Made by a program: the position numbers and the translations under genes. The notes beneath the pieces were generated by a model that searched no databases, was not told where the DNA came from, and saw only the letters and a program-made list of their open reading frames with translations. Source: an uncultured Bacilli bacterium (GTDB lineage: Bacteria > Bacillota_I > Bacilli_A > RF39 > UBA660). Taken from it: a DNA stretch of 64,000 nucleotides. The stretch is taken from the NCBI GenBank assembly GCA_947632345.1, contig CANROW010000001.1:4855-68854 (forward strand). Reading direction: 5' to 3'. This document shows, piece after piece, positions 10,868-50,067 of this stretch; the stretch's first letter is position 1; every line of letters begins with the position of its first letter.

Positions 10868-11635
10868 CTAATATCCACCATCTATTTTTATAATGGCATT
10901 ATTTATATAACTGGCATCAGGACTAGCTAAAAAATAAATTAAATTAGCTATTTCTTCTGGCTCAGCAAATCTTTTTAAATATATTTTTTCACTCTCTTTT
11001 TGAACTAATTCTTTTGGTAAATCCTTATTCATATCCGTATTGACCCAACCGGGTGCGATAGCATTCACTCTAATATAAGGAGCATACGCTAAGGCAAAGT
11101 TATGGGTTAAAGATATAATTCCTGCTTTGGATGCATCATAATCAATACTAGTTGGAAAATAAGAATTAATACCATTAGTTGAAGAGACATTTATAATGAC
11201 ACCATGCTTTTTATCCATCATCATTTTACCTATATGCTTACACATTATAAAGGTTCCTGTTAAATTATTATTAATTGTTTGATTAAAAATTTCAACAGTT
11301 CTTTCTTCTAATTCCATATCATAAACAATTCCGGCGTTATTGACTAAAACATCAATATTGCCAATCTTTTCTTTGATCTCGTTACACATTCGTATTACTT
11401 CATCTTCTTTAGAAATATCGGCAATAGCCGTAAAAACTTTAACTTTATATTTTTCTTCTATATTGTGTTTAATTTTTTCAAGTAAATCACTTTCTTCACG
11501 ATTATTTAAAACTATATCATACCCATTTTCAGCAAACTTTTTAGCTGTTGCAAGTCCAATACCTCTGCGTGAACCAGTTACTAACACAACTCTATTCATC
11601 TTTTTCACCACTTTTTTCAAGAGAAGACCAACCAA
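10868..11635 (-). CDS. Short-chain dehydrogenase/reductase family oxidoreductase
   Basis: Rossmann motif VLVTGSRRGIG, NNAG motif, and the catalytic Y..K (YDASKAG). Confidence 0.8.
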   Translation of the reverse strand: MVGLLLKKVVKKMNRVVLVTGSRRGIGLATAKKFAENGYDIVLNNREESDLLEKIKHNIEEKYKVKVFTAIADISKEDEVIRMCNEIKEKIGNIDVLVNNAGIVYDMELEERTVEIFNQTINNNLTGTFIMCKHIGKMMMDKKHGVIINVSSTNGINSYFPTSIDYDASKAGIISLTHNFALAYAPYIRVNAIAPGWVNTDMNKDLPKELVQKESEKIYLKRFAEPEEIANLIYFLASPDASYINNAIIKIDGGY

Positions 11636-12086
11636 CTCTTTCCGTCTCTATTTTCTCTTCATCATCAACGGTTAAGTATTTCATAAATATTCCTTGGCAG
11701 TAAGCTTCACCTTTTTTAACAACATAATCTTTATCACCATGGTTTTGAAGAGATACTAACATATGGCCATTATTCTGAATGCTGTTATAAAAGTCACTAT
11801 CAATTATTCCAACTTGATTAGTCATTCGCACATTATATTTGAATCCAGTGCTACTTCTTACCACTATTAATAGCACTTCATCCTCATTAAACTTAGCCCG
11901 ATATCCTGTTGGAATTCTCTTTATTTCTCCTGGCTTTATGACAAAATCTTCGACGGAATAGAAGTCATATCCCGCACTGTTTTTAGTCGATCTTTTAGGT
12001 AATTTATATTCTTCATATAACTCTTTATCATCTTTGATATCTTTCTTAAATTGTTCAAAAATGATTTTTTCAAAATATCTTCCCAT
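11592..12086 (-). CDS. dut: dUTP diphosphatase family protein
   Basis: dUTPase motif 1 (SAGYDFY), motif 2 (VRSSTG) and motif 3 (GIIDSDFY) are present. A canonical motif 5 is absent. A ribosome-binding site (AGAGGTGG) precedes the ATG. Confidence 0.65.
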   Translation of the reverse strand: MGRYFEKIIFEQFKKDIKDDKELYEEYKLPKRSTKNSAGYDFYSVEDFVIKPGEIKRIPTGYRAKFNEDEVLLIVVRSSTGFKYNVRMTNQVGIIDSDFYNSIQNNGHMLVSLQNHGDKDYVVKKGEAYCQGIFMKYLTVDDEEKIETERVGWSSLEKSGEKDE

Positions 12087-12089
12087 AAT

Positions 12090-12345
12090 CCACCTCTAAA
12101 ATAAAAACACGATAATCATCACAAAAGGACGAGTTACCGTGTTACCACCTTAATTTATAGAATAATCTATACACTTAAAGATTTAACGCAATCCTACGCA
12201 TTAGTTTAATTATTCGACTAATGAACTCCGGAACCATTCTCAATACTCGTTCTATGCTTTCTTTCACCTATCAAAGCTCTCTAATAATAGAACATCAGTA
12301 TATCTCTTTCCCTCTTTGTTTCTTTCCAATAACTTGAGTGTATTA
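12090..12345 (-). promoter_or_regulatory. T-box riboswitch leader, probable Met specifier, with promoter, preceding the dut-SDR-metG operon
   Basis: On the minus strand: an extended -10 (TGTTATAAT); an AGAGAG box; AUG in the candidate specifier loop; the T-box antiterminator sequence AATTAAGGTGGTAACACGG, in which UGGU would pair with NCCA; and a terminator hairpin ACACGGTAA...TTATCGTGT followed by TTTTTATTTT immediately before the dut ribosome-binding site. Confidence 0.6.
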
Positions 12346-17476: not shown

Positions 17477-18322
17477 TCACTTCCCTATATGATACATTTT
17501 ATAAATTTCGGATTTCGAGGTCTGTCGATCATTGGCAACTTTTTTTAAGGCTTCTTTTTCACTTAAGCCTTCTTCAAGATACATCGAAACGTGTTCTTGA
17601 ATAGTTAAATCATCAAAATTAACTTCTTGTTTATTGCCTTCGACAACGACGACAAACTCCCCTTTTATTTCTTGCTTCTCTAATTCTTCAAGTACATCAT
17701 GCACACTACCACGATAAATCTCTTCATGAATTTTGGATATTTCCCTAGCTATCGCAATACGTCTTTCTCCAAAAATTTTTTCTACTGACATCAACATCTC
17801 AATAATGCGATGTGGTGCCTCATAAAAAATAATAGTTACAGGATAGTTCTTTAAGTTTTCTAATTCTTTTTCCCTTTTTGACTTTTTCGCATTTAAGAAT
17901 CCATAAAACATAAATGGTAATGGATTGACACCAGACGCAATCAAAGCTGGAATTAACGCATTCGCACCGGGTAACGGTATTACATTATAACCCTTTTTTA
18001 TGACTTCTTCAACTATTTTATAACCAGGATCACTAATTATTGGTGTACCACGGTCTGTAACTATCCCAACATTCTTACCATCTTCTAGATATTTGATAGC
18101 TAAATTCTTAGTACTCTCCTCATTATGATCATTCGAACTGATGAGTTTCTTATTTATATCCAATCTGGTAAGCATCTGCTTCGTTATTCTTGTATCTTCA
18201 CAAAATAAGACATCAACCAATTTCAATGTCTCAATAGATCGTAAAGTCATATCGTCAAAATTGCCGATAGGCGTCGGTATCAAATATAATGAAGTGCTAC
18301 CATCATAACTCTTTTGGCTCAT
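17477..18322 (-). CDS. rsmI: 16S rRNA (cytidine1402-2'-O)-methyltransferase
   Basis: Tetrapyrrole-methylase fold motifs (LYLIPTPIGN, LFCEDTR). Bacillus yabC position. Confidence 0.8.
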   Translation of the reverse strand: MSQKSYDGSTSLYLIPTPIGNFDDMTLRSIETLKLVDVLFCEDTRITKQMLTRLDINKKLISSNDHNEESTKNLAIKYLEDGKNVGIVTDRGTPIISDPGYKIVEEVIKKGYNVIPLPGANALIPALIASGVNPLPFMFYGFLNAKKSKREKELENLKNYPVTIIFYEAPHRIIEMLMSVEKIFGERRIAIAREISKIHEEIYRGSVHDVLEELEKQEIKGEFVVVVEGNKQEVNFDDLTIQEHVSMYLEEGLSEKEALKKVANDRQTSKSEIYKMYHIGK

Positions 18323-18324
18323 AA

Positions 18325-19050
18325 TTACCTCCTAAAGAAAAGCTTGTTTATCTCATCTAAATATTCACCATTTTCATTATGAATGATTAATGGTTCTTTA
18401 ATGATTAACCCAGGCTTTCCATTTTTTCTTCCCTCAATTAAAACCATATTAGAATTGGTGTTTTTTTTGGGATATATCAATTGAATCTTTTTTGGTTCAA
18501 TATTATTTTTACGCATTTCTTCAATTATTTCAATCAAGCGATCACTTCTATGGATCATTGCAAAAACACCATTATTATCTAAATATTTTTTAGCAATTGC
18601 AACAATTTCAGATAACGTTATCTTTTCTTCGTGACGAGCAATAGTCTTATGTTCATCATCATTCTTTTTAGAAAGTTCCTCTAATTTAAAATATGGAGGA
18701 TTACAGACAATAACGTCAAAAAAATTAGCCTCAAAATATTTGTCTAATTTCTTCATATCATCATTTATCAATTGTATTTGTGAAGTTAGATCATTTATGT
18801 CTATGGATTCTTTTCCCATTTCATAAACATCTTTTTGAATTTCAATTCCATATATATGAGCGTGAGTCAAAGTTGATAATATCATCGGTATAGGAGCATT
18901 TCCTGTTCCTAAATCTAATATATTTTTTACATCCTTATTTAAAGTTACAAAGTTAGGCAAGAGAACAGAGTCTAATGAAAAACTAAACCAATCGGAATTC
19001 TGCACAATCTTTAAATTGTCATACCCCAACAAATCATTTACGACCTTCAT
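18325..19050 (-). CDS. SAM-dependent methyltransferase of the tRNA m6A37 (YabB/TrmN6) type
   Basis: DLGTGNA SAM motif and NPPY catalytic motif (VCNPPYF). Confidence 0.7.
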   Translation of the reverse strand: MKVVNDLLGYDNLKIVQNSDWFSFSLDSVLLPNFVTLNKDVKNILDLGTGNAPIPMILSTLTHAHIYGIEIQKDVYEMGKESIDINDLTSQIQLINDDMKKLDKYFEANFFDVIVCNPPYFKLEELSKKNDDEHKTIARHEEKITLSEIVAIAKKYLDNNGVFAMIHRSDRLIEIIEEMRKNNIEPKKIQLIYPKKNTNSNMVLIEGRKNGKPGLIIKEPLIIHNENGEYLDEINKLFFRR

Positions 19051-21806: not shown

Positions 21807-23444
21807 TTATAAATTCTCCTTTATCTCAATTTTACTCATATCAAATAATTCATTTGCTCTTTTTAATAAATTGCTATGAACTATTTGGCTCGAAGAATCA
21901 GCTTCATCATCTTTCTTTACCAATTCCTCAATATACTTATATTGTACATTATTTTTTATATTTTCTACATATTCTTTTTTAATTTTTAACCATTCATTGC
22001 TGGTTACAAAAATTAATTTTAATTCATAGTTCAAAATTTTACTTAAAGTTCTCTCATATTTGTCAATATACATATTTCCTTTTTCAACAAAAGAATCATA
22101 ACTATAACCCAATATTAAGTACTTAGGACTAGCTGCTAGAGGAATAGCATCTAAAAGCTCACAAACCAAAGCACCAAATTCTTTGTCAAAGGTATAATCA
22201 TTAAGTTTTTTCCAATTATTCTTAATATCAACTAAAATCTGCTTATTAACTTCAACAAACGTATTATTAATCCTAATATTTTTAAAATTATCGTCATTTT
22301 TCCAAGAAACTACTTTATTTTCAGATTCTTGTTGCAAAGTTTCATGTTCATTATTCAATATTATATTAGTTGCTTTATTTGATTCCGATATTTCTTCAGA
22401 TTTATTATTAATATTTATTTCCTGCTTCAAGACTTCTTGGCCTTCACAAATTTTATATATAGATATTTCGAAATATATTTTTCCTAAAGAAGCATCATGC
22501 ATATGATCAGCCGTTTCAAGCAGCGTCTCAACAATCGAACAAATGTTTTTGTTTTTGCTTTTTAACATTTTCTCCCTTAAGTTGCAAATAATCTTTTCAC
22601 AAATCTTCACTAGATCTTTTCCAGAATCATAATATTCATTAATTAATTGCAATACTGTATCCCTTTTCTTTTCAACAATTAGATCTGCTAAAAAATCAAT
22701 TTCATTATTTGATATAATACCGTTTATTGCAAAAATATCTTCATCAGTTATTTTATTATTAGTGTAAGAAGTTGCCATATCTAATAGGCTAATTGCGTCT
22801 CTTAAACCACCATCAGAGACATTAACTATCTCTTGAATGGCATCATCAGTTATGTCTATTTTTTCTAAATTGCTAATTTCTTTTAAACGTGCAAACATAT
22901 CTTTATTATTAATCTTTTTAAATTCAATAGTTTGACATCTTGAAACAATCGTACTAGGCACTTTATATAATTCCGTAGTAGCTAAAATAAAAATAATATG
23001 TTCTGGAGGCTCTTCAAGTGTTTTTAATAAAGCATTAAAAGCCGCATTTGATAACATATGAACTTCATCAATAATATATACTTTATATTTTAATACAGAA
23101 GGAATTAAATTAACTTTGCTTTTTAGTTCTCTTATTTCATCAACACCATTATTAGAAGCTGCATCTATTTCTAAAATATCAACACAATTATTATCAAAAG
23201 AGTTCTTACAAGCTAAACATTCACCACATGGTACACCATCTTTAATATTTTCACAATTGACCATTCTCGCAAATATTTTAGCAGTACTAGTTTTTCCGCA
23301 GCCTCTCGATCCAGTAAATAAGTAAGCATGACCAAACTTTTTATTTTCAACAGCATTTTTTAAAATATTAACAGCAACTGGTTGTCCATATATTTCATTC
23401 AAATTTTTAGGGCGATATTTTCTATATAACGCTTGATAGCCCAT
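21807..23444 (-). CDS. dnaX: DNA polymerase III subunit tau/gamma
   Basis: AAA+ Walker A (GSRGCGKTS), a zinc module (CGECLAC), and Walker B (IIDEVHML). The start was set at MGYQALYRKYRP because a GAAGGAGG ribosome-binding site precedes it. Confidence 0.9.
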   Translation of the reverse strand: MGYQALYRKYRPKNLNEIYGQPVAVNILKNAVENKKFGHAYLFTGSRGCGKTSTAKIFARMVNCENIKDGVPCGECLACKNSFDNNCVDILEIDAASNNGVDEIRELKSKVNLIPSVLKYKVYIIDEVHMLSNAAFNALLKTLEEPPEHIIFILATTELYKVPSTIVSRCQTIEFKKINNKDMFARLKEISNLEKIDITDDAIQEIVNVSDGGLRDAISLLDMATSYTNNKITDEDIFAINGIISNNEIDFLADLIVEKKRDTVLQLINEYYDSGKDLVKICEKIICNLREKMLKSKNKNICSIVETLLETADHMHDASLGKIYFEISIYKICEGQEVLKQEININNKSEEISESNKATNIILNNEHETLQQESENKVVSWKNDDNFKNIRINNTFVEVNKQILVDIKNNWKKLNDYTFDKEFGALVCELLDAIPLAASPKYLILGYSYDSFVEKGNMYIDKYERTLSKILNYELKLIFVTSNEWLKIKKEYVENIKNNVQYKYIEELVKKDDEADSSSQIVHSNLLKRANELFDMSKIEIKENL

Positions 23445-23549
23445 ATTTCCAAACCTCCTTCTTATCAATTATTATAACATTATCTTTTATTAAAAAAAAT
23501 TAATTTATTAATCATTTAGAGTAAATATTTTATTATTAACGCCAAAAAT

Positions 23550-23563
23550 ATTTCCCGGGAAAT
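23550..23563. promoter_or_regulatory. Noc-binding site, perfect ATTTCCCGGGAAAT
   Basis: Exact 14-bp palindrome. Confidence 0.75.
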
Positions 23564-23588
23564 AATTTTTATCAAATTAAAAATATAA

Positions 23589-23604
23589 TGTTTCACGTGA
23601 AACA
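23589..23604. promoter_or_regulatory. parS site, perfect TGTTTCACGTGAAACA
   Basis: Exact 16-bp palindrome matching the Firmicute parS consensus tGTTNCACGTGAAAca. Confidence 0.8.
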
Positions 23605-23739
23605 TAAAAATATAAAATAAAATATTTCAAGCAAATTATAATAATAATATTTATAAATATTTTTATATAATTAAAAAAGCATAATTACATAAATAACTCA
23701 AATGGCTTTCATATCATTAAATAAATGAGACTTAAAATT

Positions 23740-23752
23740 ATTTCCGGGAAAT
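23740..23752. promoter_or_regulatory. Noc-binding-site variant ATTTCCGGGAAAT, with one C deleted
   Basis: 13-bp version of the NBS palindrome. Confidence 0.5.
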
Positions 23753-23778
23753 AATTTAGCACTAGATCAATAATTAAA

Positions 23779-23794
23779 TGTTTCACGTGAAACA
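23779..23794. promoter_or_regulatory. parS site, perfect
   Basis: TGTTTCACGTGAAACA exact. Confidence 0.8.
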
Positions 23795-23801
23795 AAAAAA
23801 T

Positions 23802-23815
23802 ATTTCCTGGGAAAT
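23802..23815. promoter_or_regulatory. Noc-binding-site variant ATTTCCTGGGAAAT, with one mismatch
   Basis: One substitution relative to the NBS palindrome. It lies 8 bp downstream of the adjacent parS. Confidence 0.55.
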
Positions 23816-24029
23816 ATTTTTTGTACATTTTTAGACACGTTAATTTACAAATTATTTATAAAAATTTACATATAATTATTTTTAGGTTTTATAAATTTTT
23901 AGTATTTAAAAATGAGAATTATATGTTTTTTGCAAAAAAATGTTTTACATATTAATTTGTAAAAAATATCTTTTATATTAAGAAAAAAACGTAAAATATT
24001 GTATATTTTATATCAAAATGCATAATTAA

Positions 24030-24045
24030 TGTTTCACGTGAAACA
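24030..24045. promoter_or_regulatory. parS site, perfect
   Basis: TGTTTCACGTGAAACA exact. Confidence 0.8.
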
Positions 24046-24129
24046 TTATATAAAAATTTTTTTTATTTAAATTAACATTTTAAATATACAAATTTTTATA
24101 ACATTTTAAAAGTTTTGATCAACAAAATT

Positions 24130-24143
24130 ATTTCCCGGGAAAT
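24130..24143. promoter_or_regulatory. Noc-binding site, perfect
   Basis: ATTTCCCGGGAAAT exact. Confidence 0.75.
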
Positions 24144-24170
24144 AATTTAGAATTAGATTAATAATTATAA

Positions 24171-24186
24171 TGTTTCACGTGAAACA
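24171..24186. promoter_or_regulatory. parS site, perfect
   Basis: TGTTTCACGTGAAACA exact. Confidence 0.8.
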
Positions 24187-24194
24187 TAAAAAAT

Positions 24195-24208
24195 ATTTCC
24201 CGGGAAAT
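24195..24208. promoter_or_regulatory. Noc-binding site, perfect
   Basis: ATTTCCCGGGAAAT exact. It lies 8 bp downstream of the parS and immediately 3' of the tadA stop codon. Confidence 0.75.
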
Positions 24209-24212
24209 ATTT

Positions 24213-24659
24213 TTATTTATTTCTTTTGTTATAAAAAAAGATATTTATGAGATTTGAACATTCTTCTGAACAACAATTTTTAACCCAATTAATTTTTTTT
24301 AAAATATCAAAGCTAATATTTCTAGTTTCTAAATTATTATTAACGGCTCCTGTAATAATTCTTTTTATTCGCGATTGCTCAATAGCGCTTGCACACATAG
24401 GACATGGTTCTAATGTTATATATATTTCACAATCTTCTAATCGCCAATTGTTCAATTTTTTGTTTGCTTTATTAATGGCAATAATTTCAGCATGATCAAC
24501 TACTCTGTTGCTCATATTGCGAGTATTATAGGCTTTCGCTATTATTTTATTATCTTTTACGATAACAGCTCCTACAGGTATTTCATCTTTGTCCAATGCT
24601 TTTTTTGCTTCTTTTAAAGCAATCTTCATATATTTCTCATCATTCATAATTAACTCCAT
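24213..24659 (-). CDS. tadA: tRNA-specific adenosine deaminase
   Basis: CMP/dCMP deaminase zinc motifs (HAEIIAI, PCPMCASA). Confidence 0.85.
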   Translation of the reverse strand: MELIMNDEKYMKIALKEAKKALDKDEIPVGAVIVKDNKIIAKAYNTRNMSNRVVDHAEIIAINKANKKLNNWRLEDCEIYITLEPCPMCASAIEQSRIKRIITGAVNNNLETRNISFDILKKINWVKNCCSEECSNLINIFFYNKRNK

Positions 24660-24666
24660 AAAAAAT

Positions 24667-24740
24667 GATGCACATATATATAATTAGTTAAGGCTGCTAC
24701 CTTCCGATCCTGACCTGGTTCCCAACATATACATTGCATC
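24667..24740 (-). ncRNA. ffs: Small (4.5S-type) signal recognition particle RNA
   Basis: The minus-strand sequence GATGCAATGTATATGTTGGGAACCAGGTCAGGATCGGAAGGTAGCAGCCTTAACTAATTATATATATGTGCATC contains the SRP domain-IV consensus (CCAGGUCAGG..CGGAAGG.AGCAGCC). The two ends pair (GATGCA with TGCATC). A TTTTT run follows. Upstream are a TTGAAA -35, a 17-bp spacer and a TATATT -10. Confidence 0.65.
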
Positions 24741-24789
24741 GTTATTAATATATACTATTTATTCTTTTTTTTCAAGAAAAAGAGGAACT

Positions 24790-27285
24790 TTATTCTTCCT
24801 CTTCAATAAATTCATTATTATCAGAATCATCAAGGCTTGATTCATTACTTGTTTCATCATCAGCAGTTTTGATTAAGGTTGTTACTGTAGAAACTTTTTG
24901 ATTATCTTTTAAATGAATTAATCTTACTCCTTGTGTATTTCTACCTAATGTTGAAACTTGCTCCATAGCGATTCTTATAATAATACCATTATCAGTTATT
25001 ATAACTAAATCTTCGTTTCCTTCAACACATCTCAATGAAACCATTGATCCTGTTTTCTCTGTTGTATTTAGTGCTTTAACACCTTTGCTGCCACGATGAG
25101 TTAATCGATACTCACCAGCATTTGTTCTCTTACCATATCCATTTTCCGTAACAATGAGAATATGTTTATCTTCAGTAACAACTTCTGCTCCGACAACGGA
25201 ATATTGATTTTCAAATTCAATAGCTTTGACTCCTGAACTGCTGCGTCCCATAACTCTAACTTCATTTTCATCAAATCTTACCATTCGACCATTATTAGCA
25301 CCAACAGCTATCTGTTTTGTACCATCAGACTTACGAACAGAAATCAATTCATCATTTTCTTTCAACACAATAGCTTTTTTACCATTATTCCTAATATTAT
25401 CAAATTCCTCTAAAGCAGTACGTTTAATTACACCTTTTTTCGTAACAAATACTAAATATTTATTCTCTTCATTTTCAGCTTTAACCATAACCATTGATGT
25501 AATCTTTTCATCCTTTTCTAATGGTAATAAATTAACTATTGGTAGTCCTTTTGATTGTCGACTAAATTCTGGGACTTCATATCCTTTCATTCGGTATACT
25601 TTACCCAAATTACTAAACATCAATATATAATCATGTGTCTTCATAGAAATTAATTTTTCTGGGAAGTCTTCTTCATTAGTTCCCATACCTTTAATTCCTA
25701 CGCCACCACGGTTTTGCACTTTAAATGTGTCATTTTGTACACGTTTGATGTACCCCTTATTTGTCAACGTAATAATTATATCTTCAACCGGTATTAATGA
25801 TTCATCTTCTATATAGTCAATTGCGGTCATATCAATGCTTGTCCGTCTCTCATCAGCATATTTGCTCTTTATATCAAGAAGTTCATCCTTAATTACAGCT
25901 AAAATATTCTTTTCACTTGATAAGATTAATCTTAAGCGATCAATTTCTTTTAATAAATCAGCAAGTTCACTTTCAATCTTAGCTCTTTCTAATCCAGTTA
26001 AACGTCGTAACTTCATTTCTAGGATAGCATCGGCTTGAAGTTCATCTAAATTAAAGTTACTTTGTAAACTTGCCTTAGCAATTTCATCACTTTCTGAATC
26101 TCTAATAATCTTAATAACACGATCCAAATTATCTAGGGCTATTTTAAATCCCTCTAATATATGAACTCTTGCTTCAGCTTTTTTCAATTCAAATTGCGTT
26201 CTTCTAATTATTACTTCTTTTTGATATTCAATATATTTAGAAATAATATCTTTTAATCCTAAAGTTTTTGGTGTTCCATTATCAAGCATTAAGAAGATGA
26301 TTCCGAAGCTTGTTTGAAAGGCCGTATGCTTAAACAAATTATTTAAAACAACTTGTGGATTTGCATCTTTTTTCAAAGTAATTGTTATTTTTATACCATC
26401 TTTTAGATCAGTATGGTAATCAGATATACCTTCAATTACTTTATTATGAACTAAATCAGCCACTTTTTTCTTAAGTTCTGAAGTATTAACGCCATATGGT
26501 ACTTCATCAATTATAATAGCGTTATGACCATTTGTCTCTTCAATACGCGCTCTACTTCTTATGGTAATTGTACCTTTACCAGTTTCATACGCTTGCCTAA
26601 TACCAGAATTTCCTAAAATGATACCACCAGTTGGGAAATCTGGACCTTTTATGTATTGCATCAATCCTAAAGTATCAATTTCAGGATTATCAATATAAGC
26701 AACACATCCATCAATTACTTCACCTAAATTATGTGGAGGAATATTAGTCGCCATTCCAACAGCGATTCCCATCGTTCCATTGACCAAAATATTTGGGAAT
26801 CTTGAAGGCAATATTTCCGGTTCCCTTTCACTTTCATCAAAGTTAGGAACAAAATTTACTGTATCTTTATTAATATCTCTTAACAATTCCAATGAAATCT
26901 TTGATAATTTTGACTCGGTATAACGCATAGCTGCGGCTCCATAACCTTCAATGTTACCAAAATTACCATGACCATCAACTAACATATAACGGTAGCTGAA
27001 ATCTTGGGCCATCCGCACCATTGCTTCATAGATTGAACTATCACCGTGTGGATGATATTTTCCCATAACCTCACCCACAATTCTTGCACTTTTGCGGTGT
27101 GGCTTATCAGGGGTATAACCTGTATCATACATTGAATATAAAATTCTTCTGTGAACTGGCTTTAAACCATCTCTTAAGTCTGGTAGAGCCCGTTGAACAA
27201 TTACACTCATTGAATATTCAAGAAAGGATGTTTCAACTTCACTTACTATGTTATTCTCTTCTAATCTATCTCTATTATGATCCAT
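24790..27285 (-). CDS. gyrA: DNA gyrase subunit A
   Basis: 831 aa. Active-site region AAMRYTE, the QRDR-like segment [17 protein letters not shown], and C-terminal beta-pinwheel repeats. Confidence 0.95.
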
Positions 27286-30484: not shown

Positions 30485-30937
30485 TTAGTTTTTATTTATT
30501 TTTCTTTTTCGCGAAATCAATTCTAACATTGACGATCTACTGATTTGATTTTCTATTGATAATTTTGACATATCAATGCTCATTTCTTCATTATTTTTAA
30601 AAGTTACACGTACTCTTTGACCTTCTTTTTCATATTTTTTTATATAATTATAATTTATCCAACAACAGTCATCTAATAGACTTGACTTAGTTGGGAAAAA
30701 TATAATATTTTCACTCTCTTCAATTATGATTGGCAATTTGTAACAACTATTTAACATTTTTTTTGCTGCGGATAATCTTCCTTTGTAGGTACTTCCATAA
30801 TATTCACAACTATCTTCCATTATTTCATAGGCATTTTTATCAACAACCCATTCTTTTTCTAATTCCTTTACTAACGTTTTGTTGTAACCAATAGGTATTA
30901 TTGCCATTGTTTCCTCATTAATTTCATATTCAATCAT
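30485..30937 (-). CDS. ComK-family protein (competence transcription factor family)
   Basis: 150 aa. Colinear similarity to B. subtilis ComK: IMEDSCEYYGSTYKGR against IVDRSCRFFGSSYAGR; NIIFFPTKSSLLDDCCWINYNYIKKYEK against QIFLFPTLSSTRPQCGWISHVHVKEFKA; RVRVTFKNNEEMSIDMSKLSIENQISRSSML against EVTFSNGKTMELPISYNSFENQVYRTAWL. It occupies the dnaN-recF gap. Confidence 0.6.
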   Translation of the reverse strand: MIEYEINEETMAIIPIGYNKTLVKELEKEWVVDKNAYEIMEDSCEYYGSTYKGRLSAAKKMLNSCYKLPIIIEESENIIFFPTKSSLLDDCCWINYNYIKKYEKEGQRVRVTFKNNEEMSIDMSKLSIENQISRSSMLELISRKRKINKN

Positions 30938-32164: not shown

Positions 32165-32313
32165 TTTGATTCCTTCTTTCTTTATTATTTAATTATTGTT
32201 TTTTTTATTATTACAGTTGAAACTGTTGATAAGTAATTTTTTTCTATTATTATAAGGTTTTTTATAATTTTTTACTTGTCGATAATTTGTGGAAAAAATT
32301 ATTTAATTAACAA
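32165..32313. promoter_or_regulatory. oriC segment in the dnaA-dnaN gap: DnaA boxes plus an AT-rich unwinding element
   Basis: Reverse-strand TTATCAACA at about 32224..32232 and TTTTCCACA at about 32287..32295. An extreme AT tract lies at 32185..32215 (tttattatttaattattgttttttttattatta). Confidence 0.6.
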
Positions 32314-33687
32314 CTAATGGATTTCTTTTTCAAGAATATCAATTGTTTTCGCTAGTTCTTTATTGGTTTTACTCTCTTTCTCTATTTTATCACACGAGAA
32401 CATTACAGTTGAATGATCTTTTCCACCAAAAGCCATACCAATTTTAGGAAATGATTCATCAGTGAGTTTTCGACATAAATACATAGCTATTTGTCTTGGG
32501 AAAGCGATATTAGCACTTCTCTTTTTACCAACTAAGTCCTCTACTTGTATTTTAAAATAATCAGCAACGACTTTTTGAATTTTTGCAACGTCATTCTTTT
32601 CGGTAATGACTGTTGTAGTTGCATAATCCTTTAAAGCATCTTTGGCAAGTTCAAGCGTTATTTCATCACTCTTTCCAGTATTTGCGAAATAAGAATAAGC
32701 AATCAATCTCGTTAGAGCACCTTCTAATTTTCGGACATCACCACTTATAGTTGCGGCAATGTATTGAATGACATCTTCAGGGATTTTTTTTGTTATGTTC
32801 TCCCCTACTATTTTTCTTCGTAAGATGGCGGCTCGTAACTCTAAATCTGGTGGATAGATATCAACTGCTAATCCCCACCCAAAACGTGTTTTTAAACGAT
32901 CTTCTAACTTTTTTAGGTCATTTGGGGAGGAATCTGATGATATAATTATCTGTTTATTTCCCTCGTATAAAGTATTAAAGGTGTGAAAAAATTCTTTTTG
33001 TGATTCGGTTGCCCCACCTAAGAATTGAATATCGTCAATGATGAGTACATCGATATCCCGATATTTTTGTTTAAAGAATTCGACGTAGTTAAAGTTAGTA
33101 CCACTATCGTCTTTGCGATTCATTGAAACAAAATCAGTAACAAATTGTTCACTCGTTATATAAAGTACCCGTTTATTACTATGACTGACGATATAATTTC
33201 CAATTGCATGCATCAAATGCGTTTTTCCCAGTCCACTATTACCATATATAAATAAAGGATTGTAGATACGTCCAGGATCTTCAGCAACAGCCAAGGACGC
33301 GGCGTGAGCAAAGCGATTACTATTACCAACAGCAAAATTGTCAAAAGTGTATTTTGGGGATAAATTGTTGCTGATTTGATAGGGTTCTCTCCCCTCTTCT
33401 TTTATTGATTCGTCAACAATTGAATGTTGTTCCTCTTCTATTTCCTCTTTTAGTAATAATTCGATTTCATAATTGTTGCCCGTTTCTTCAAAAAAACACC
33501 GATCAATTAAATCCTTATAATTATTGATAATGTGTTGCCTAAGCATTGCGTAAGGAACAATTATTTTCGCAACCCCATTATCTATACAGTATAATTCCAT
33601 TTCCGAAAACCAAGTGTTATAAGCTAATGAACTGAGCTCTTTTTTTATTTTGTCTAAAATATTAGACCATAAAACGTCTTTATCCAT
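32314..33687 (-). CDS. dnaA: Chromosomal replication initiator protein DnaA
   Basis: AAA+ Walker A GNSGLGKTHL, Walker B LIIDDIQF, and a C-terminal DNA-binding domain. The start was set at MDKDVLWSNI because a GGGGGAG ribosome-binding site precedes it. Confidence 0.95.
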   Translation of the reverse strand: MDKDVLWSNILDKIKKELSSLAYNTWFSEMELYCIDNGVAKIIVPYAMLRQHIINNYKDLIDRCFFEETGNNYEIELLLKEEIEEEQHSIVDESIKEEGREPYQISNNLSPKYTFDNFAVGNSNRFAHAASLAVAEDPGRIYNPLFIYGNSGLGKTHLMHAIGNYIVSHSNKRVLYITSEQFVTDFVSMNRKDDSGTNFNYVEFFKQKYRDIDVLIIDDIQFLGGATESQKEFFHTFNTLYEGNKQIIISSDSSPNDLKKLEDRLKTRFGWGLAVDIYPPDLELRAAILRRKIVGENITKKIPEDVIQYIAATISGDVRKLEGALTRLIAYSYFANTGKSDEITLELAKDALKDYATTTVITEKNDVAKIQKVVADYFKIQVEDLVGKKRSANIAFPRQIAMYLCRKLTDESFPKIGMAFGGKDHSTVMFSCDKIEKESKTNKELAKTIDILEKEIH

Positions 33688-33779
33688 TCTACCACTCCCC
33701 CCGGAATATCCAAGAATTAATTTCAAAAATATTGTAACTTAAAATGTGTAAAAAGAAAACATAAAAATTATAAAAAAAA

Positions 33780-33900
33780 ATATCAACAGCTTTTCCACAA
33801 AGTTATACACAATTTTTTAGTATATTTTGTATGGTTTTTATGATTTTTCCACATTTTCCACAAATTTTTCTTAACAAGAAAATTTTGAGTTATCAACATA
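33780..33900. promoter_or_regulatory. oriC segment upstream of dnaA: a cluster of at least five DnaA boxes
   Basis: Same-orientation 9-mers within one mismatch of TTATCCACA: TTTTCCACA at 33791, TTATACACA at 33803, TTTTCCACA at 33845 and 33854, and TTATCAACA at 33889. Confidence 0.65.
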
Positions 33901-33980: not shown

Positions 33981-36290
33981 ATGTGTGATTGTGTGAAATT
34001 TGACTTATTAACTTATAACGAATTGAAAGCGTTAAACATCTTTAAACATCATCCGTGTTATGCTTATCCTACCAATTATGCATTATTATTGGGAGCATAT
34101 GTTTCAGAAGTTAGTACTCTTAATGCTTTGAGTTATGATCATCTCGATTATTTTCCAACGAATGGAGTAACATTTAAAAATGGAGTCACCAATTATCCAC
34201 TTCCAGGAATGTATTTTGATAAAGAATCTCTTAATTTTATAAAATTTGATGAAAAGAGTCCCATTCTTGATTTAGATGAACAGATTGTTTCAGGAAGTAA
34301 TTTCTTTTTAGATTCTGCGGTTTGTCCTAGACCAGTTGTGAAGTATTCTCAGATATCTCAGAATATGAAAAACATTAGAATAGGGGATAATGGTATTTTT
34401 GAAGGGGATTTTGGTGAAATGCCAACATCTTTTGTGGATAAAGATTTAGAAAAACGATTAGAAAGAGAGTATCAATCAAAACAATTAAAGATTACTGGCC
34501 GAAAATATTCATATAATTCTAGACCACCTGTTGATGCTTCATATATTGTTGATTTAGATGAAAATGTCGAGTATGAGTATAATGGCAAATATTATGTTCG
34601 CTTTGTCTCTTATAATAGTGAGGAATATGGAAATGATAATAGAGTAGGATTATATGTCAATCCTAGCTATTATGTTGAAAGTGAACACCCATATTGGCTA
34701 GAAGTAAAACCAATAAAATGGCTAATTGATAAAGAAGCTGATCTTGCTGTTATGAAATATCTTCCTTTTGCTGGGATTCCTTTTTATGGAATAGAGAATG
34801 GTAAGAATGGCGAGAGAAATGCACTAGATGATTTTTTATTAGTAAATGGATTAGAAGACTTAAAAGAACAGATTATCTCATATTTTAATAAGATGTTTGG
34901 TTTTGAGGAGGAAGAAAAAGAAGTAGAAGCTTCTGAAAATTGTTATATGTATTCCTTCTTAAATAACATTTTTGCCAAAGAGATTGTTGCACCTCGTCAA
35001 ATTCAAGATTATCGAAGTGACTTTTTTATAGTTGATCAACAGGAACTTTTTCCTGTCTTTTATCAAGATAATAAAAATAAAGATGAATTTGCTGACGAAT
35101 GTATAAGATATTTACTTTCTGTTACTAAAAAAACTCTTGAACTTCTTGAACAAATTAAAGAAATTGATCAACCAAGTACCGATCCAAATGTCTTTGCTGA
35201 AAAGATTAATGAGTATCGAAAACAAGTAGAGAAAGAAAATTATGCCTATGAGACGATAAAAGAAAAAGATATTTTTGATCGATTATTATCATGTATAGTA
35301 GAAGATGAAAACGTATGCGATCTCAATAGGGAATTAAGAATAATGAATAGTTCAAATAAAACCGCACTAGCAATGCAGAGAATTATTTCAAAATTACAAA
35401 AGATTACTGAAGATTACATTCTTCAGGATATACAAACTATTTTAAATGATAAAATAAAAGATTTACTTTTTGATAAAGATTCTTTGATTCAAGAAATTGA
35501 AAACGCAGTTGCGACTAATGATGAAATTCCTGAAGAAATAAAAGATTTTTTTAAGGAGTGGAAAGATTATCCAGATGAAATAAAAGGAGATATGGTTGAA
35601 CATCTAGTTGAAGACTTTAATAACAACATAAAAAGAGATTTGTTTGATAATGCCAAAATAGAAGAAGTAATGAAAAAAGCTTTTGAAGATCAAAAGCGCT
35701 TTGAATTTGCTAATCAAGTAAATAAAGATTGGCTTGAAGCGGTTATAGGATTTATTGAAAAATACGTTGATGGTGATTATTCTCAATACTATGACGAATT
35801 TAAAAATTTAAAATATAATATGATTTTCATATATCCAGAATTGGAAGAGAGAGCTTTAAAAGATGGTTTAAAATTACATTCAGATGTTTTGTTCCTCAAT
35901 CAAATTATTGCTGACAAATATAATTTTGATAGTAAGTTAGTAGATGACGTAAAGAATTCTTTTGGATATGAAATTATGAGTATCTGTTATCAACAATTGA
36001 AAGACTTGAAACATATTCATAGCTCTGATAACTATTATGGACAAGTATTAATTAACCATTTACTAATAAGAGCTGCATTATTATTTACTGATCGTGATTT
36101 TGTTTCTGATCTTGAGAAATGTTGTGAGTATAATCAATCTAGTGGTATTGTTTCTCCGAAAATTGGAGGAAAAGAGGGGACTCTTTCTGGAACGGGAAAC
36201 GATATATTTGAAGATGCTGTAAAGAGGCATAAAAGTGAAAAGGATGAAGAATTACCAAAAATTTTAAGTCTTAGAGCTAAAAATAATTAA
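33981..36290 (+). CDS. Hypothetical 769-aa cytoplasmic protein: an N-terminal roughly 270-aa domain paralogous to the next ORF, plus a long acidic alpha-helical C-terminal region
   Basis: Ribosome-binding site AAGGAG upstream. No TM or signal peptide. Shares motifs with the ORF at 36303..37478: PRPVVKYSQ against LRPVVAYSD; YEYNGKYYVRFV against YYYNGERYVRYV; VKPIKWLIDKE against VMPIKWLVDKE. Confidence 0.5.
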   Translation: MCDCVKFDLLTYNELKALNIFKHHPCYAYPTNYALLLGAYVSEVSTLNALSYDHLDYFPTNGVTFKNGVTNYPLPGMYFDKESLNFIKFDEKSPILDLDEQIVSGSNFFLDSAVCPRPVVKYSQISQNMKNIRIGDNGIFEGDFGEMPTSFVDKDLEKRLEREYQSKQLKITGRKYSYNSRPPVDASYIVDLDENVEYEYNGKYYVRFVSYNSEEYGNDNRVGLYVNPSYYVESEHPYWLEVKPIKWLIDKEADLAVMKYLPFAGIPFYGIENGKNGERNALDDFLLVNGLEDLKEQIISYFNKMFGFEEEEKEVEASENCYMYSFLNNIFAKEIVAPRQIQDYRSDFFIVDQQELFPVFYQDNKNKDEFADECIRYLLSVTKKTLELLEQIKEIDQPSTDPNVFAEKINEYRKQVEKENYAYETIKEKDIFDRLLSCIVEDENVCDLNRELRIMNSSNKTALAMQRIISKLQKITEDYILQDIQTILNDKIKDLLFDKDSLIQEIENAVATNDEIPEEIKDFFKEWKDYPDEIKGDMVEHLVEDFNNNIKRDLFDNAKIEEVMKKAFEDQKRFEFANQVNKDWLEAVIGFIEKYVDGDYSQYYDEFKNLKYNMIFIYPELEERALKDGLKLHSDVLFLNQIIADKYNFDSKLVDDVKNSFGYEIMSICYQQLKDLKHIHSSDNYYGQVLINHLLIRAALLFTDRDFVSDLEKCCEYNQSSGIVSPKIGGKEGTLSGTGNDIFEDAVKRHKSEKDEELPKILSLRAKNN

Positions 36291-36302
36291 TAGGGGGAAA
36301 AT

Positions 36303-41621: not shown

Positions 41622-41623
41622 AA

Positions 41624-46701: not shown

Positions 46702-46758
46702 AATGGATTTTATTATTATATAATTTAAGATAGAATAAGAATAGATGGAGGGTTGATT

Positions 46759-48297
46759 ATGGAAAATGAAGTTGTTCAATTGTATCTTGATGATATAATT
46801 CCTAATAGATTTCAACCAAGAGAGGTTTTTAATGATCAAGCATTAAAAGAATTAGCTATTTCAATTAGAGAACATGGAGTCATTCAGCCAATTATTGTAA
46901 GAAAGTTTGGAGATAAATACGAAATAATAGCTGGTGAAAGAAGATATAAAGCATCGACGATGGCAGGTCTTACCAAAATACCAGCAATTGTTAGAAATTT
47001 AGATGATAAGGAATCTTCAAAAGTTGCATTAATAGAGAATCTTCAAAGAAGAGATTTAACGCCAATCGAGGAAGCTCGTACATATCAAAAGATCTTGGAC
47101 TTAGATGAAATGACACAAGAAGATTTAGCCAAGACAATGGGAAAGAGTCAATCATCTGTATCTAATAAATTGCGTTTATTGTCATTACCAGATGAAGTGC
47201 AGGAAGCATTGTTAAAAGAAGAAATATCTGAAAGACATGCGCGCAGTCTATTGAATTTAAATGATAAAAATATGCAAGTTGAATTGTTGAAAGAAGTCAT
47301 CAGTACCAAGATGACCGTTCGTGATTTAGATGCAAAAATAAAAAAACTAACCGAGGGAGCTTCTAGTGAGTCCAGCGAGACAAGTGGTGGTAGTATGATG
47401 AATGTCGTAGAACAACCTGATCAAGAAAAAGCAAATGATTTGATAACCCCACCAGAACCTATGAGTGCAAATCAACCTTTAGAGAATTCTAATAATATAG
47501 AATCTCTCTTCACTAGTGCCAATTCAAGAACCACTGATAATTTATTTAGTGATAATGTTCAACCGACAAATGAAACAAATACAAATGATAATTTAGGAGC
47601 TGAAAATAAAATGAATAACGATAGTTTGTTTGGAAATAGCTCAAATCAAAATGATATCAATACAGTTCCAGATATACTTAATAATACCAATATTTTTGGA
47701 CCTCGTGATGTAACGAATGATCCGACGACCGTTGATATTAACAAAATTCGCGAGCAGTCAGCTGACATTGCACCAAAACCAACTGAACCATCTAAGAGTA
47801 TCTTTGATGTCAATGGTTTGGTTAATAAGAATGTTGATGTCAACTCTTCAACTAATAATGCTAGCAGTTTCATTCCAAAATTTAATGATGAACAAGAAGC
47901 TAAACCTGAAACTACTAATATAAATGGTAATGGATTACTTTCTGGTATGCCTAGCTTAAAACCAGTTGAAAATACACCAACGCCAAATAGCTCTAATACA
48001 TCTAGTCTATTCGGTTCTTCCATTGAACAAAATACTTCTAGTGTGAATAATAATAGTTTATTCACTACACCAACCGTAGATACAATAAAGACAAATAATG
48101 AAAGCTTATTCGGTTCAAATCCTAATAACTCTTCAATGATTGCTGATAGTATGGTATCATCTAATAGTGTTACTAAAGCAGTTCAAGATGTTAAAGATGT
48201 TATTAAGGCATGTCAAGATAAAGGATATAAAGTATCTGTAGAAGAGTTAAATTTAGATAATGAAATTCAATTAATAGTAAAATTTAATAAGGACTAA
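46759..48297 (+). CDS. noc: Nucleoid occlusion protein Noc (ParB paralogue) carrying a roughly 230-aa Asn/Ser/Thr-rich disordered insertion and lacking the N-terminal amphipathic helix
   Basis: ParB N-terminal domain (IPNRFQPR, GERR). The helix-turn-helix region carries Noc-type residues (GKSQSSVSNKLRLL, ITERHAR-like EISERHARSL). A conserved C-terminal dimerisation-like segment (KGYKVSVEELNLDNEIQLIVKF) follows the low-complexity region. A GGAGGG ribosome-binding site precedes ATG 46759. Confidence 0.75.
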   Translation: MENEVVQLYLDDIIPNRFQPREVFNDQALKELAISIREHGVIQPIIVRKFGDKYEIIAGERRYKASTMAGLTKIPAIVRNLDDKESSKVALIENLQRRDLTPIEEARTYQKILDLDEMTQEDLAKTMGKSQSSVSNKLRLLSLPDEVQEALLKEEISERHARSLLNLNDKNMQVELLKEVISTKMTVRDLDAKIKKLTEGASSESSETSGGSMMNVVEQPDQEKANDLITPPEPMSANQPLENSNNIESLFTSANSRTTDNLFSDNVQPTNETNTNDNLGAENKMNNDSLFGNSSNQNDINTVPDILNNTNIFGPRDVTNDPTTVDINKIREQSADIAPKPTEPSKSIFDVNGLVNKNVDVNSSTNNASSFIPKFNDEQEAKPETTNINGNGLLSGMPSLKPVENTPTPNSSNTSSLFGSSIEQNTSSVNNNSLFTTPTVDTIKTNNESLFGSNPNNSSMIADSMVSSNSVTKAVQDVKDVIKACQDKGYKVSVEELNLDNEIQLIVKFNKD

Positions 48298-48413: not shown

Positions 48414-49202
48414 ATGGGAAAGGTAATATCTTTGGTTAATCAAAAGGGTGGAGTAGGAAAGACAACAACTAGTATAAATCTTTCGGCGTCTCTAGCTGTG
48501 TTAGGGAAAAAAGTTTTATTAATTGATTTAGATCCTCAAGGTAATGCAACGACGGGAATTGGAATAAATAAAGGTGAGATAGAAAATAGTATATATGATG
48601 TATTGACGGATACCTGTGATATTGAAGAAGCAATTATCACTAGTAAATATAAAAGATTATATGTCATCCCATCAACAATTAGATTAGCTGGTATTAATAC
48701 AGAGTTAGTTGAAAGAGGAATAGATGATGCGAGTTTTGTGCGTGGGGCGCAACTAAAGAATAAATTAGATGGTGTCAAAGATAATTTTGATTTTGTCATT
48801 ATCGATTGCCCACCAGCATTAGATTGGATTACGACAAATGCCTTGACAGCCTCTGATTCAGTTATTATTCCTGTACAATGTGAATTCTTTGCGTTAGAAG
48901 GAATAATGCAATTATTGAACAGCATTGTCAAAGCTCAAGAGAAATTGAACCCTAAACTTGATATAGAAGGCGTATTACTAACAATGTTGGATTCAAGGAC
49001 AAATTTGGGATTTGACGTCGTAGAAGATATCAGAAAGTTTTTCAAAGAGAGGGTTTACAACACAATTATTCCAAGATTGATAAGACTTACAGAAGCACCA
49101 TCTCATGGGAAACCAATAGTAGCTTATGATCCTAAAAGTAAAGGAACAGAAGCATATTTAAATTTAGCTAAGGAAGTGATTGAGAGAAATGGACACAACT
49201 AG
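48414..49202 (+). CDS. soj: Chromosome partitioning ATPase ParA/Soj
   Basis: Deviant Walker A motif NQKGGVGKTTT and ParA family length. Confidence 0.9.
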   Translation: MGKVISLVNQKGGVGKTTTSINLSASLAVLGKKVLLIDLDPQGNATTGIGINKGEIENSIYDVLTDTCDIEEAIITSKYKRLYVIPSTIRLAGINTELVERGIDDASFVRGAQLKNKLDGVKDNFDFVIIDCPPALDWITTNALTASDSVIIPVQCEFFALEGIMQLLNSIVKAQEKLNPKLDIEGVLLTMLDSRTNLGFDVVEDIRKFFKERVYNTIIPRLIRLTEAPSHGKPIVAYDPKSKGTEAYLNLAKEVIERNGHN

Positions 49203-50067
49203 AAGAAGAGCATTAGGTAAAGGACTTGAAGAATTGTTTAGTAATGAACAATTAGATTTTAATAAAATGGAAGAAAAAATAGTCAATTCAACTCCTAAAG
49301 AAGAAATTGTGGAAATTAAATTGGCTGATTTACGAAGCAATCCGTATCAACCAAGAAAGATATTTGATGAAGAAAAATTAAAAGAATTAGCCGATTCAAT
49401 CAAAGAACACGGTGTCTTTCAACCTATAATTGTTAAGAGAAGCATTAAAGGATACGACATTATTGCTGGTGAGCGAAGAGTAAAAGCTTGTCAAATGGCT
49501 GGTCTTGAGACAATTCCAGCTATCATTAGAGATTTCTCTGATTCTGATATGATGGAAATTGCTCTTTTAGAAAATCTTCAAAGGGAAAATTTAAATCCTA
49601 TTGAAGAAGCTGATGCATACAGAAAACTATTAGATTCATTGAGCTTGACACAAGATGAGTTGGCCAAAAGACTCGGAAAGAGTAGAAGTCATATTACTAA
49701 TATGTTGGGATTATTAAATTTACCAGATGAAGTTAAAAGTTTGATAAATGAAAATAAAATCTCAATGAGTCATGCTCGTGTTTTGAGTAAAATGGAGGAT
49801 AAAGAAAAAATTGATGATTTCGTCAATATGATTTTGAATGATAATCTCAATGTTCGTGAAATGGAAGAATTATCTAGAACTGCGGATGTTTCAAAGACTC
49901 ATAAAATAAATCGCAAACCACAAGAGAATGAATATAGTTATTTAGAGGATGAATTGTCTGACAAATTGGGAACGAGAGTTAAGATAAAGAAGAATAAGAT
50001 AGAGATAGTGTTTACTAATAATAGTGATTTAAATCGTATTTTAGAAATTATGAATTTAAACGATTAG
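49189..50067 (+). CDS. spo0J: Chromosome partitioning protein ParB/Spo0J
   Basis: ParB boxes (GERR, ENLQREN). The helix-turn-helix region has ParB-type residues (GKSRSHITNMLGLL). The ATG at 49189 overlaps the soj stop codon. Confidence 0.85.
   Translation: MDTTRRRALGKGLEELFSNEQLDFNKMEEKIVNSTPKEEIVEIKLADLRSNPYQPRKIFDEEKLKELADSIKEHGVFQPIIVKRSIKGYDIIAGERRVKACQMAGLETIPAIIRDFSDSDMMEIALLENLQRENLNPIEEADAYRKLLDSLSLTQDELAKRLGKSRSHITNMLGLLNLPDEVKSLINENKISMSHARVLSKMEDKEKIDDFVNMILNDNLNVREMEELSRTADVSKTHKINRKPQENEYSYLEDELSDKLGTRVKIKKNKIEIVFTNNSDLNRILEIMNLND

Follow-up and report, generated by a model that had tools for sequence, protein, structure and literature searches.

The stretch of DNA considered here (64,000 nucleotides of contig CANROW010000001.1 from an uncultured Bacilli bacterium, hereafter the window) carries, between the genes tadA and dnaX, both on the minus strand, a non-coding gap of 24% guanine-plus-cytosine (GC) content at 23445..24212 in which the binding palindromes of two paralogous proteins alternate. 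One is parS, bound by the chromosome partition protein ParB, the other the Noc-binding site (NBS), and four perfect parS, three perfect NBS and two imperfect NBS follow one another within 660 bp. With moderate confidence we read this gap and its array of sites as the chromosome centromere, a composite loading zone for two paralogous DNA clamps that depend on cytidine triphosphate (CTP).

All four parS copies (parS-1, 23589..23604; parS-2, 23779..23794; parS-3, 24030..24045; parS-4, 24171..24186) read TGTTTCACGTGAAACA and match the 16-bp palindromic consensus TGTTNCACGTGAAACA, and a motif search of the 64 kb returned no fifth match even with two mismatches allowed (chance expectation 0.01). The NBS palindrome ATTTCCCGGGAAAT is exact at 23550, 24130 and 24195, and each of the three copies extends to the 16-mer TATTTCCCGGGAAATA (NBS-1, 23549..23564; NBS-4, 24129..24144; NBS-5, 24194..24209). 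NBS-3 (23802..23815), 7 bp from parS-2, carries one mismatch (ATTTCCTGGGAAAT), and NBS-2 (23740..23752) is a 13-bp copy lacking one central base (ATTTCCGGGAAAT), which is probably weakened or dead. The exact copies and NBS-3 are all the NBS found in the window at two or fewer mismatches (chance expectation 0.41). Neither the gap nor any of its sites is given a strand. A first-pass annotation of the window had named the same four parS and, for NBS, the same three exact copies, one mismatched copy and one deleted copy, and all of these are confirmed.

Measured from centre to centre and in order of coordinates, the sites are arranged as NBS–40 bp–parS, then the deleted NBS–40.5 bp–parS–22 bp–NBS, then a lone parS (parS-3, without adjoining NBS), and finally NBS–42 bp–parS–23 bp–NBS, with edge gaps between neighbouring parS and NBS of 7-8 bp and 25-27 bp. 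The two complete modules (approximately 23725-23835 and 24114-24225) align with few differences, flanking bases included, as the first reading of the sequence had described. NBS-5, 8 bp from parS-4, lies a few base pairs past the tadA stop codon. In crystallography and biochemistry, the duplexes GGATATTTCCCGGGAAATATCC (NBS) and GGATGTTTCACGTGAAACATCC (parS) have been employed, and the 16-mers of the window, for NBS as for parS, are identical to the cores of these oligonucleotides, so that testing in vitro is immediately possible with material already in use. Two independent ENA assemblies of the same species reproduce the array, with 100% and 99.95% identity to the window over 23167-25454 and a single difference that falls in gyrA; the array, including the deleted NBS, is therefore not an assembly artefact.

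The non-coding nature of the gap, also claimed at the outset, withstood closer inspection. An RNA or small-protein gene was considered and rejected, as the search for open reading frames (ORFs) found none longer than 44 amino acids and the only Rfam match was a microRNA model scoring 21 bits against a threshold of 59 (E = 0.87). A promoter scan of the gap gave 11 promoter-like sites against 15 expected from shuffled sequence, which is uninformative in DNA of 24% GC, a terminator scan of this same GC-poor gap found none, and no DnaA box was detected in the array at one mismatch or fewer. The array is at the same time the upstream region of dnaX (DNA polymerase III gamma/tau; longest ORF 21807..23468, minus strand), whose true start is probably the ATG at 23444, behind an AGGAGG ribosome-binding site at 23454-23459; on the other side, tadA (tRNA adenosine deaminase; 24213..24659, minus strand) ends at the array.

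ParB and the Noc orthologue

The first-pass annotation had placed the genes of ParB and Noc about 23 kb from the sites. The distance holds, at approximately 22.5-25 kb for the genes at 46753-48297 and 49180-50067, across oriC; the name Noc holds in part, since the protein concerned is not canonical, being devoid of the membrane helix and endowed with a long linker.

The three genes of interest are on the plus strand: a ParB-family gene for a protein of 514 amino acids (46753..48297), parA/soj, encoding a ParA-type ATPase (48414..49202), and parB/spo0J (49180..50067). The ParB of the window, predicted to bind parS from its motifs, domains and recognition residues, has 295 amino acids, with an N-terminal LGKGL ParA-activating motif, the CTP motifs GERR and ENLQR, and the domains ParB_N, HTH_ParB and ParB_C. 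In the numbering of Caulobacter ParB, the positions that set specificity are R173/T179/A184/G201 in parS binders and Q173/K179/K184/R201 in Noc, Q173 and R201 giving NBS recognition if a lysine is present at 179 or 184, and all the 17 ParB and four Noc proteins tested told parS from NBS (Jalal et al., 2020). At these four positions ParB of the window reads R-M-N-S, which is the parS type, with a small residue at 201, while the 514-amino acid protein reads Q-K-S-R, the NBS type with serine at 184. Three features by which a ParABS centromere is recognised are found together in the window: consensus parS, a position close to the origin, and ParA and ParB, the latter with parS-type residues.

By its structural matches, sequence identity and gene position, the 514-amino acid protein is a Noc orthologue, predicted to bind NBS. 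Among solved structures its best match is Noc (223 bits), followed by Spo0J/ParB (185 and 175 bits); it is 54% identical to Noc of G. thermoleovorans (229 bits) as compared to 48% to the ParB encoded beside it (179 bits), and its gene occupies the place of noc in the order rsmG–noc–parA–parB. Residues 1-202 comprise the CTP-binding N-terminal domain and the helix-turn-helix, with the GERR and ENLQR motifs and the recognition residues Q…NK…ERHAR; residues 203-467 form a disordered linker of about 265 amino acids, rich in N, S, T and P and containing seven [SN][LI]F[GTS] motifs; residues 468-512 constitute a small C-terminal domain. Against NCBIfam TIGR04285 the protein scores 288 bits, with a cut-off of 315, over model positions 1-202 of 255, and its C-terminal 44 amino acids match positions 212-255 of the Noc model colinearly, albeit weakly (E = 0.049). 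The AlphaFold2 model agrees with this division, the per-residue confidence (pLDDT) being about 60-94 over residues 1-202 (about 90 across the DNA-binding domain), about 90 over 468-512 and below 50 over 203-467, except for a short helix at 327-333. This helix is contained in a semi-conserved linker motif, DPTxVDINKIRE (residues ~325-345); a second one, NGxGLLxGMP, spans residues ~385-400, and both are candidate interaction motifs. The linker also matches Pfam Nucleoporin_FG, below threshold.

Alignment to the Noc structures begins at residue 5-6 of the orthologue, which corresponds to residue 27-28 of Noc, and no upstream extension of the ORF is possible; the helices α1 and α2 are therefore missing, and the protein starts where the engineered truncation NocNΔ26 starts. 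In B. subtilis, Noc requires its amphipathic helix both to bind the membrane and to carry out nucleoid occlusion. The 120 closest homologues (356-593 amino acids) all have short acidic N-termini and the pattern Q-K-x-R. An exhaustive search of 1.84 billion cluster representatives (50%-identity clusters) provided the 150 best family members, 59-89% identical and 221-821 amino acids long, in which the match starts within the first eight residues in nearly all cases and within the first 20 in all but one. The membrane helix is absent from all 270 family members examined in these two sets. Among the 140 representatives not seen before, Q is present in 140, K179 in 138, R201 in 139 and K184 in none, position 184 being occupied in the family by N, S, T or A, and the disordered linker measures 100-340 amino acids across the family. 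As far as these sequences tell, the architecture without helix and with a long linker is a trait of the family.

parS and NBS in related genomes

One genome per species, for 185,579 species, was scanned for parS (TGTTNCACGTGNAACA) within 30 nt of the NBS core TTTCCCGGGAAA, a coincidence that we estimate to arise by chance about 0.01 times. At least 120 loci were recovered; this count, like those of the metagenome scan discussed below, is a lower bound from which no prevalence fraction is derivable. In 118 of these loci the sites lie in the gyrA–tadA–dnaX neighbourhood of low-GC (23-31%) uncultured metagenome-assembled genomes (MAGs), labelled Bacilli, Erysipelotrichaceae, Tenericutes/Mollicutes, and Clostridium sp. 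CAG:710, CAG:417 and CAG:1000. From these inconsistent labels and the GTDB names CAG-710, CAG-417 and CAG-1000, we take the clade to be Bacilli of the RF39/RFN20 type. The placement of 'Candidatus Scybalousia' in Bacteroidales by NCBI is contradicted by the gene content. Two high-GC Clostridia (L032 and L095), each with a single parS beside a TTTCCCGGGAAA word, were set aside as unrelated or due to chance. The 8-kb stretches around the listed loci contain gyrA in 93 cases, tadA in 86 and dnaX in 78, and the gyrA and gyrB genes of the relatives have only 72-80% nucleotide identity to those of the window. The sites occupy either or both of two gaps, gyrA–tadA and, as in the window, tadA–dnaX, the array of most relatives being in the former. 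The pairing, kept in place at this locus by at least 118 species, argues for function and against a mobile element. The arrangement first noticed in one genome is real there and turns out to be clade-wide rather than a peculiarity of that genome, with module spacing and unit length that vary by species.

Arrays of the relatives often consist of a unit peculiar to the species, repeated in tandem with a period of 64, 75, 76, 82, 84 or 172/334 bp (in L063, 75 bp × 8.8 copies with 92% identity), and evolve by tandem duplication of the parS+NBS unit. Some alternate strictly, namely L045 (11+11 sites) and L063 (9+9), with L010, L035 and L093 similar, and other relatives have many parS and only one or two NBS. 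In alignments centred on the sites, approximately 22 bp at NBS (AAATTATTTCCCGGGAAATAATTT) and 18 bp at parS have high information content, which is zero beyond, so that across species only the two palindromes are conserved. Since unit lengths and spacers differ between species, what is conserved is the palindromes and neither a module nor a mobile element; a mobile or unrelated repeat element is rejected in view of this palindrome-only conservation together with the conserved synteny between housekeeping genes. Distances between parS and NBS are broadly distributed between about 22 and 49 bp, peaking at 26, 35-36 and 49 bp, without the 10.5-bp periodicity that helical phasing would give. Of the 514 parS in the sample made of the 118 low-GC loci and the window (119 sequences), 271 are no more than 60 bp away from an NBS. 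The array units of L044 (~4670-4870) and L007 (~970-1510), two relatives, contain a DnaA-box-like word, TTTTCCAC(A/T), between parS and NBS.

A second set of relatives was independent of the motifs, seven TadA homologues (58-72% identity) having been picked solely because they lie on long contigs. All seven have two or three parS-like sites and one or two exact NBS beside tadA and none elsewhere in 10-12 kb, and in six of the seven an NBS is found a few base pairs past the tadA stop codon, in the position of NBS-5. On contig CASFOW010000035.1 an array and the noc-like–parA–parB operon occur together, laid out as they are in the window. Six of the seven sampled relatives (L244-L250) have a BofA-family gene (59-61 amino acids) located between recR and holB, a hint that sporulation genes may have been retained in part of the clade. 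Metagenomic contigs with close TadA homologues mostly measure no more than about 0.5-3 kb, which suggests that the repeat arrays on either side of tadA are a regular breaking point of short-read assembly; such centromeres are consequently likely to be under-represented in MAGs.

As to the distribution of NBS, the first-pass claim of clustering stands for the window, where the site occurs in the array only, and has to be relaxed for the relatives, which also have NBS outside the arrays, inside genes close to the origin. In the 119 sequences, 240 exact 14-bp NBS were counted in 100 kb of arrays as compared to 52 in 852 kb of flanks, an enrichment of about 40-fold, and those 52 compare with a chance expectation for the flanks of about 0.002, estimated by us from base composition. 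Several of the intragenic exact sites are at fixed codon positions: dnaX ~340-385 (37 loci), rsmI 194-195 (nine loci), a methyltransferase gene ~107 (eight loci), ybaB residue 31 (six loci), recF 369 (four loci) and pth 31 (two loci). The window counterparts of these genes (dnaX, rsmI at 17477-18322, the methyltransferase gene at 18325-19050, ybaB, recF and pth) contain no intragenic NBS. A metagenome scan for the 16-bp NBS alone, with no parS requirement, retrieved at least 120 stretches; among those listed with GC below 0.32, 50 of 56 are syntenic with the 64-kb window around the origin, and their sites are mostly beside gyrA or tadA, the rest being in dnaX, rsmI, recF and a few gaps close to the origin. 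The high-GC matches were single NBS without parS, in numbers expected by chance or from other Firmicutes. One complete MAG of the clade, CP091739.1, measures 1.53 Mb, and its genomes are roughly 1-1.5 Mb. Taken from contigs rather than complete genomes, these data point to a concentration of NBS within tens of kilobases of oriC.

In the window, the genes are ordered mfd–pth–rsmI–methyltransferase–ricT–holB–recR–ybaB–dnaX–array–tadA–ffs–gyrA–gyrB–recF–comK-like–dnaN–dnaA–oriC, with the signal recognition particle RNA gene ffs (24653-24750) and gyrA (24790-27285) beyond tadA, and, on the far side of oriC, mnmE–mnmG–rsmG followed by the genes of the Noc orthologue, ParA and ParB. The oriC region (32224..33898, no strand) is marked by clusters of DnaA boxes on both sides of dnaA (32314-33726), at 32224-32296 and 33791-33898, and by a switch in the sign of GC skew at about 33-34 kb; the array is 8-9.5 kb from these clusters. 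The oriC/dnaA region is separated from rnpA by two large ORFs (769 and 391 amino acids; 33981-37478, plus strand) without Pfam or NCBIfam match, and in one relative rpmH–rnpA is found in their place. Two further ORFs without family match (617 and 332 amino acids; 39768-42622, minus strand), between jag and mnmE, are transcribed against the direction of replication and coincide with a local dip in GC skew, so that the pair resembles an insertion. The gene between recF and dnaN (30485-30937, minus strand), in the window as in at least two relatives, encodes a ComK-family protein, which was not to be expected of uncultured Bacilli with small genomes, and a T-box leader (103 bits; 12122-12325, minus strand) precedes the ORF at 11592-12086.

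Proposed loading of two clamps and its alternatives

Occupancy of the array by both ParB and the Noc orthologue is the part of our interpretation that we hold with most assurance, and we consider it likely from the sites and residues described above; what the orthologue would do there is less firm. According to what is established for ParB and Noc biochemistry, ParB dimers would nucleate on parS and, once CTP is bound, close as clamps that slide to the flanking DNA, where they would engage ParA, and probably SMC, for segregation of the origin region. The Noc orthologue would nucleate on the interleaved NBS, bind CTP, close and slide likewise. Because the nucleation sites alternate 22-42 bp apart, both clamps would be fed onto the same DNA, and two clamp populations loaded onto the same few kilobases would be able to reach oriC, about 9 kb away. 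Being devoid of α1 and α2, the orthologue should not tether DNA to the membrane as Noc does in B. subtilis. More speculatively, its linker motifs may make it an accessory part of the partition complex, through self-association, condensation or recruitment of partners, and not a genome-wide nucleoid-occlusion factor. The composite loading zone put forward by the first-pass annotation is in this way upheld as regards the sites, which exceed chance, are clustered and have cognate residues in the encoded proteins, and amended as regards the partner, which is a Noc orthologue without membrane anchor.

A number of observations weigh against this interpretation. Nucleation sites so close to one another could obstruct rather than help the sliding of two clamps. 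Two of the five NBS of the window are imperfect, and the many relatives that pair many parS with one or two NBS indicate that not every parS needs an NBS. Since the family never has K at position 184, affinity or specificity for NBS could differ from that of canonical Noc. Finally, since the arrays grow by tandem duplication, strict alternation alone is no proof of selection, and within arrays the variable columns were not significantly fewer in the sites (28/224) than in the spacers (99/567; p = 0.11), the arrays having been recently homogenised.

The alternative that survives best, though we think it unlikely, is a nucleoid occlusion focused on the origin, in which the Noc orthologue would block division by contacting the membrane or the divisome through its linker or C-terminal domain, and proximity to parS would be a by-product of both site types having been selected near oriC. 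Orthology to Noc, the same gene position and the same NBS are all in keeping with it, the conserved short motifs and hydrophobic LF-type repeats of the linker could mediate such contacts, and a bias to the origin-proximal half or two-thirds of the chromosome is already on record for the sites of canonical Noc. The NBS that relatives have outside the arrays, inside genes near the origin, also fit. However, the amphipathic helix required in B. subtilis is missing throughout the family members examined, and the concentration within a few tens of kilobases to which the contigs point is far tighter than the megabase-scale spread of B. subtilis and S. aureus. More than 100 species place an NBS within 22-49 bp of a parS, and over half of the parS counted (271/514) have one within 60 bp, which is moreover closer than location of both near the origin would need.

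Regulation, less probable again in our view, would see the NBS-loaded clamp spread about 8-10 kb to oriC/dnaA and restrain initiation, or else both proteins, bound in the gap, act on dnaX–ybaB–recR transcription or on read-through from tadA; interleaving with parS would then be a matter of regulation and not of segregation. The distance from the array to the DnaA-box clusters is suitable, S. aureus Noc being reported to spread 8-10 kb and to limit initiation, but this replication control has no established mechanism in S. aureus and was not transferable between species. Location is equally double-edged: in the window the array is the upstream region of dnaX and, there as in six of the seven relatives, an NBS closely follows the tadA stop, whereas the array of most relatives is in the gyrA–tadA gap, not upstream of dnaX, and no single promoter is consistently covered. 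That ParB-family clamps can be long-range repressors is illustrated by KorB; the promoter scan of the gap, with 11 sites for 15 expected, does not help the case.

It is improbable that NBS is bound by another protein, either a ParB that tolerates the two-base difference per half-site, or an unrelated factor for a CCCGGG-centred palindrome, the Noc orthologue then having no part at this locus. The two sites do differ at only two positions per half-site and the orthologue has no K184, but the 17 ParB and four Noc proteins mentioned above discriminated between them, Q173 and R201 with one permissive lysine suffice for NBS preference, and in the ParB of the window position 173 is R and position 201 a small residue; conservation between species of the 16-bp NBS together with its flanks was, furthermore, not forced by the search, and the site is an exact match to the Noc site. 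Least probable, and disfavoured, is an NBS that is a neutral passenger, co-amplified in a tandem parS unit and kept by concerted evolution, for although tandem units such as the 75-bp repeat of L063, the close alignment of the two full modules of the window, flanks included, and the non-significant site-versus-spacer test would suit it, both palindromes are exact in units of 64-334 bp with unrelated spacers between species, exact NBS are present also in the non-tandem gaps of all seven unbiased relatives and at fixed codon positions of genes near the origin, and the 52 exact 14-mers of the flanks compare with about 0.002 expected.

Known systems and significance

Taken singly, parS, NBS and ParB-family CTP clamps are known kinds of elements; we regard as new the arrangement and the anchor-less, long-linker form of Noc. 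The open-access literature searched contains no description of interleaved parS/NBS arrays, of NBS confined to the origin or of Noc orthologues without helix, in accordance with the first-pass statement that the arrangement is undescribed, and a survey of the ParB-CTPase fold published in 2025 treats Noc as keeping the canonical architecture. With the Noc–NBS systems of B. subtilis and S. aureus, the window shares the 16-bp NBS, the rsmG–noc–parA–parB position, the CTP motifs, the recognition residues and a small C-terminal domain that matches the end of the Noc model colinearly. It differs from them in the absence of α1 and α2, in the linker (100-340 amino acids in the family), in the replacement of K184 and in a score below the family cut-off (288 vs. 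315 bits), as well as in the location of the clade's sites, interleaved with parS and apparently concentrated within tens of kilobases of oriC. In the model organisms, about 40-70 NBS are distributed over the origin-proximal half to two-thirds of a megabase-scale chromosome.

Chromosomal ParABS clusters such as those of Caulobacter, Pseudomonas aeruginosa (four sites) and Myxococcus likewise comprise several perfect parS in one cluster near the origin, with ParA and ParB encoded nearby and CTP-dependent loading and spreading to be expected. Here, in contrast, parS alternates with a second palindrome, predicted to serve a ParB paralogue, the cluster occupies an intergenic gap next to tadA and not near parAB, and relatives often have regular tandem two-site units. 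The sopC centromere of the F plasmid consists of 12 tandem 43-bp units with one SopB site each. It resembles the tandem arrays of the relatives, with their 64-84-bp units in up to 9-11 copies and a ParB-family palindrome in each, whereas the present arrays are chromosomal and have two palindromes per unit for two paralogues, that of the window being irregular (four parS over 600 bp). KorB and other orphan ParB-CTPase clamps offer a further parallel, namely a ParB-fold CTP clamp without ParA-activating peptide, with its own palindrome and a function beyond ParA-driven segregation; KorB is a plasmid-borne repressor acting with KorA at its own operator, unlike the chromosomal Noc orthologue, whose sites are inside a proposed centromere.

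ParB and Noc are the textbook case of how, after duplication, a DNA-binding protein changed its site specificity and took on a new function. In the known picture, parS sites are at the origin, and NBS are scattered and tied to the membrane; here the two are interleaved in a conserved, putative centromere. Our broader view, tentative and held at somewhat less than even confidence, is that this large branch of uncultured Bacilli has a two-clamp centromere, in which a Noc that never contacts the membrane would act as a structural or recruiting part of the ParB complex by means of its disordered, FG-like linker, as an ancestral state of Noc or as a re-purposing that followed genome reduction. If the ancestral option were true, a duplicated ParB would have been still at the centromere before gaining its membrane anchor. 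If confirmed, the arrangement would represent a natural intermediate or an alternative outcome of the divergence of Noc from ParB, and would place two CTP clamps on one track, where cooperation, roadblocking and co-condensation would be directly testable. It would also provide a centromere architecture for a large, uncultured and medically relevant group of gut bacteria.

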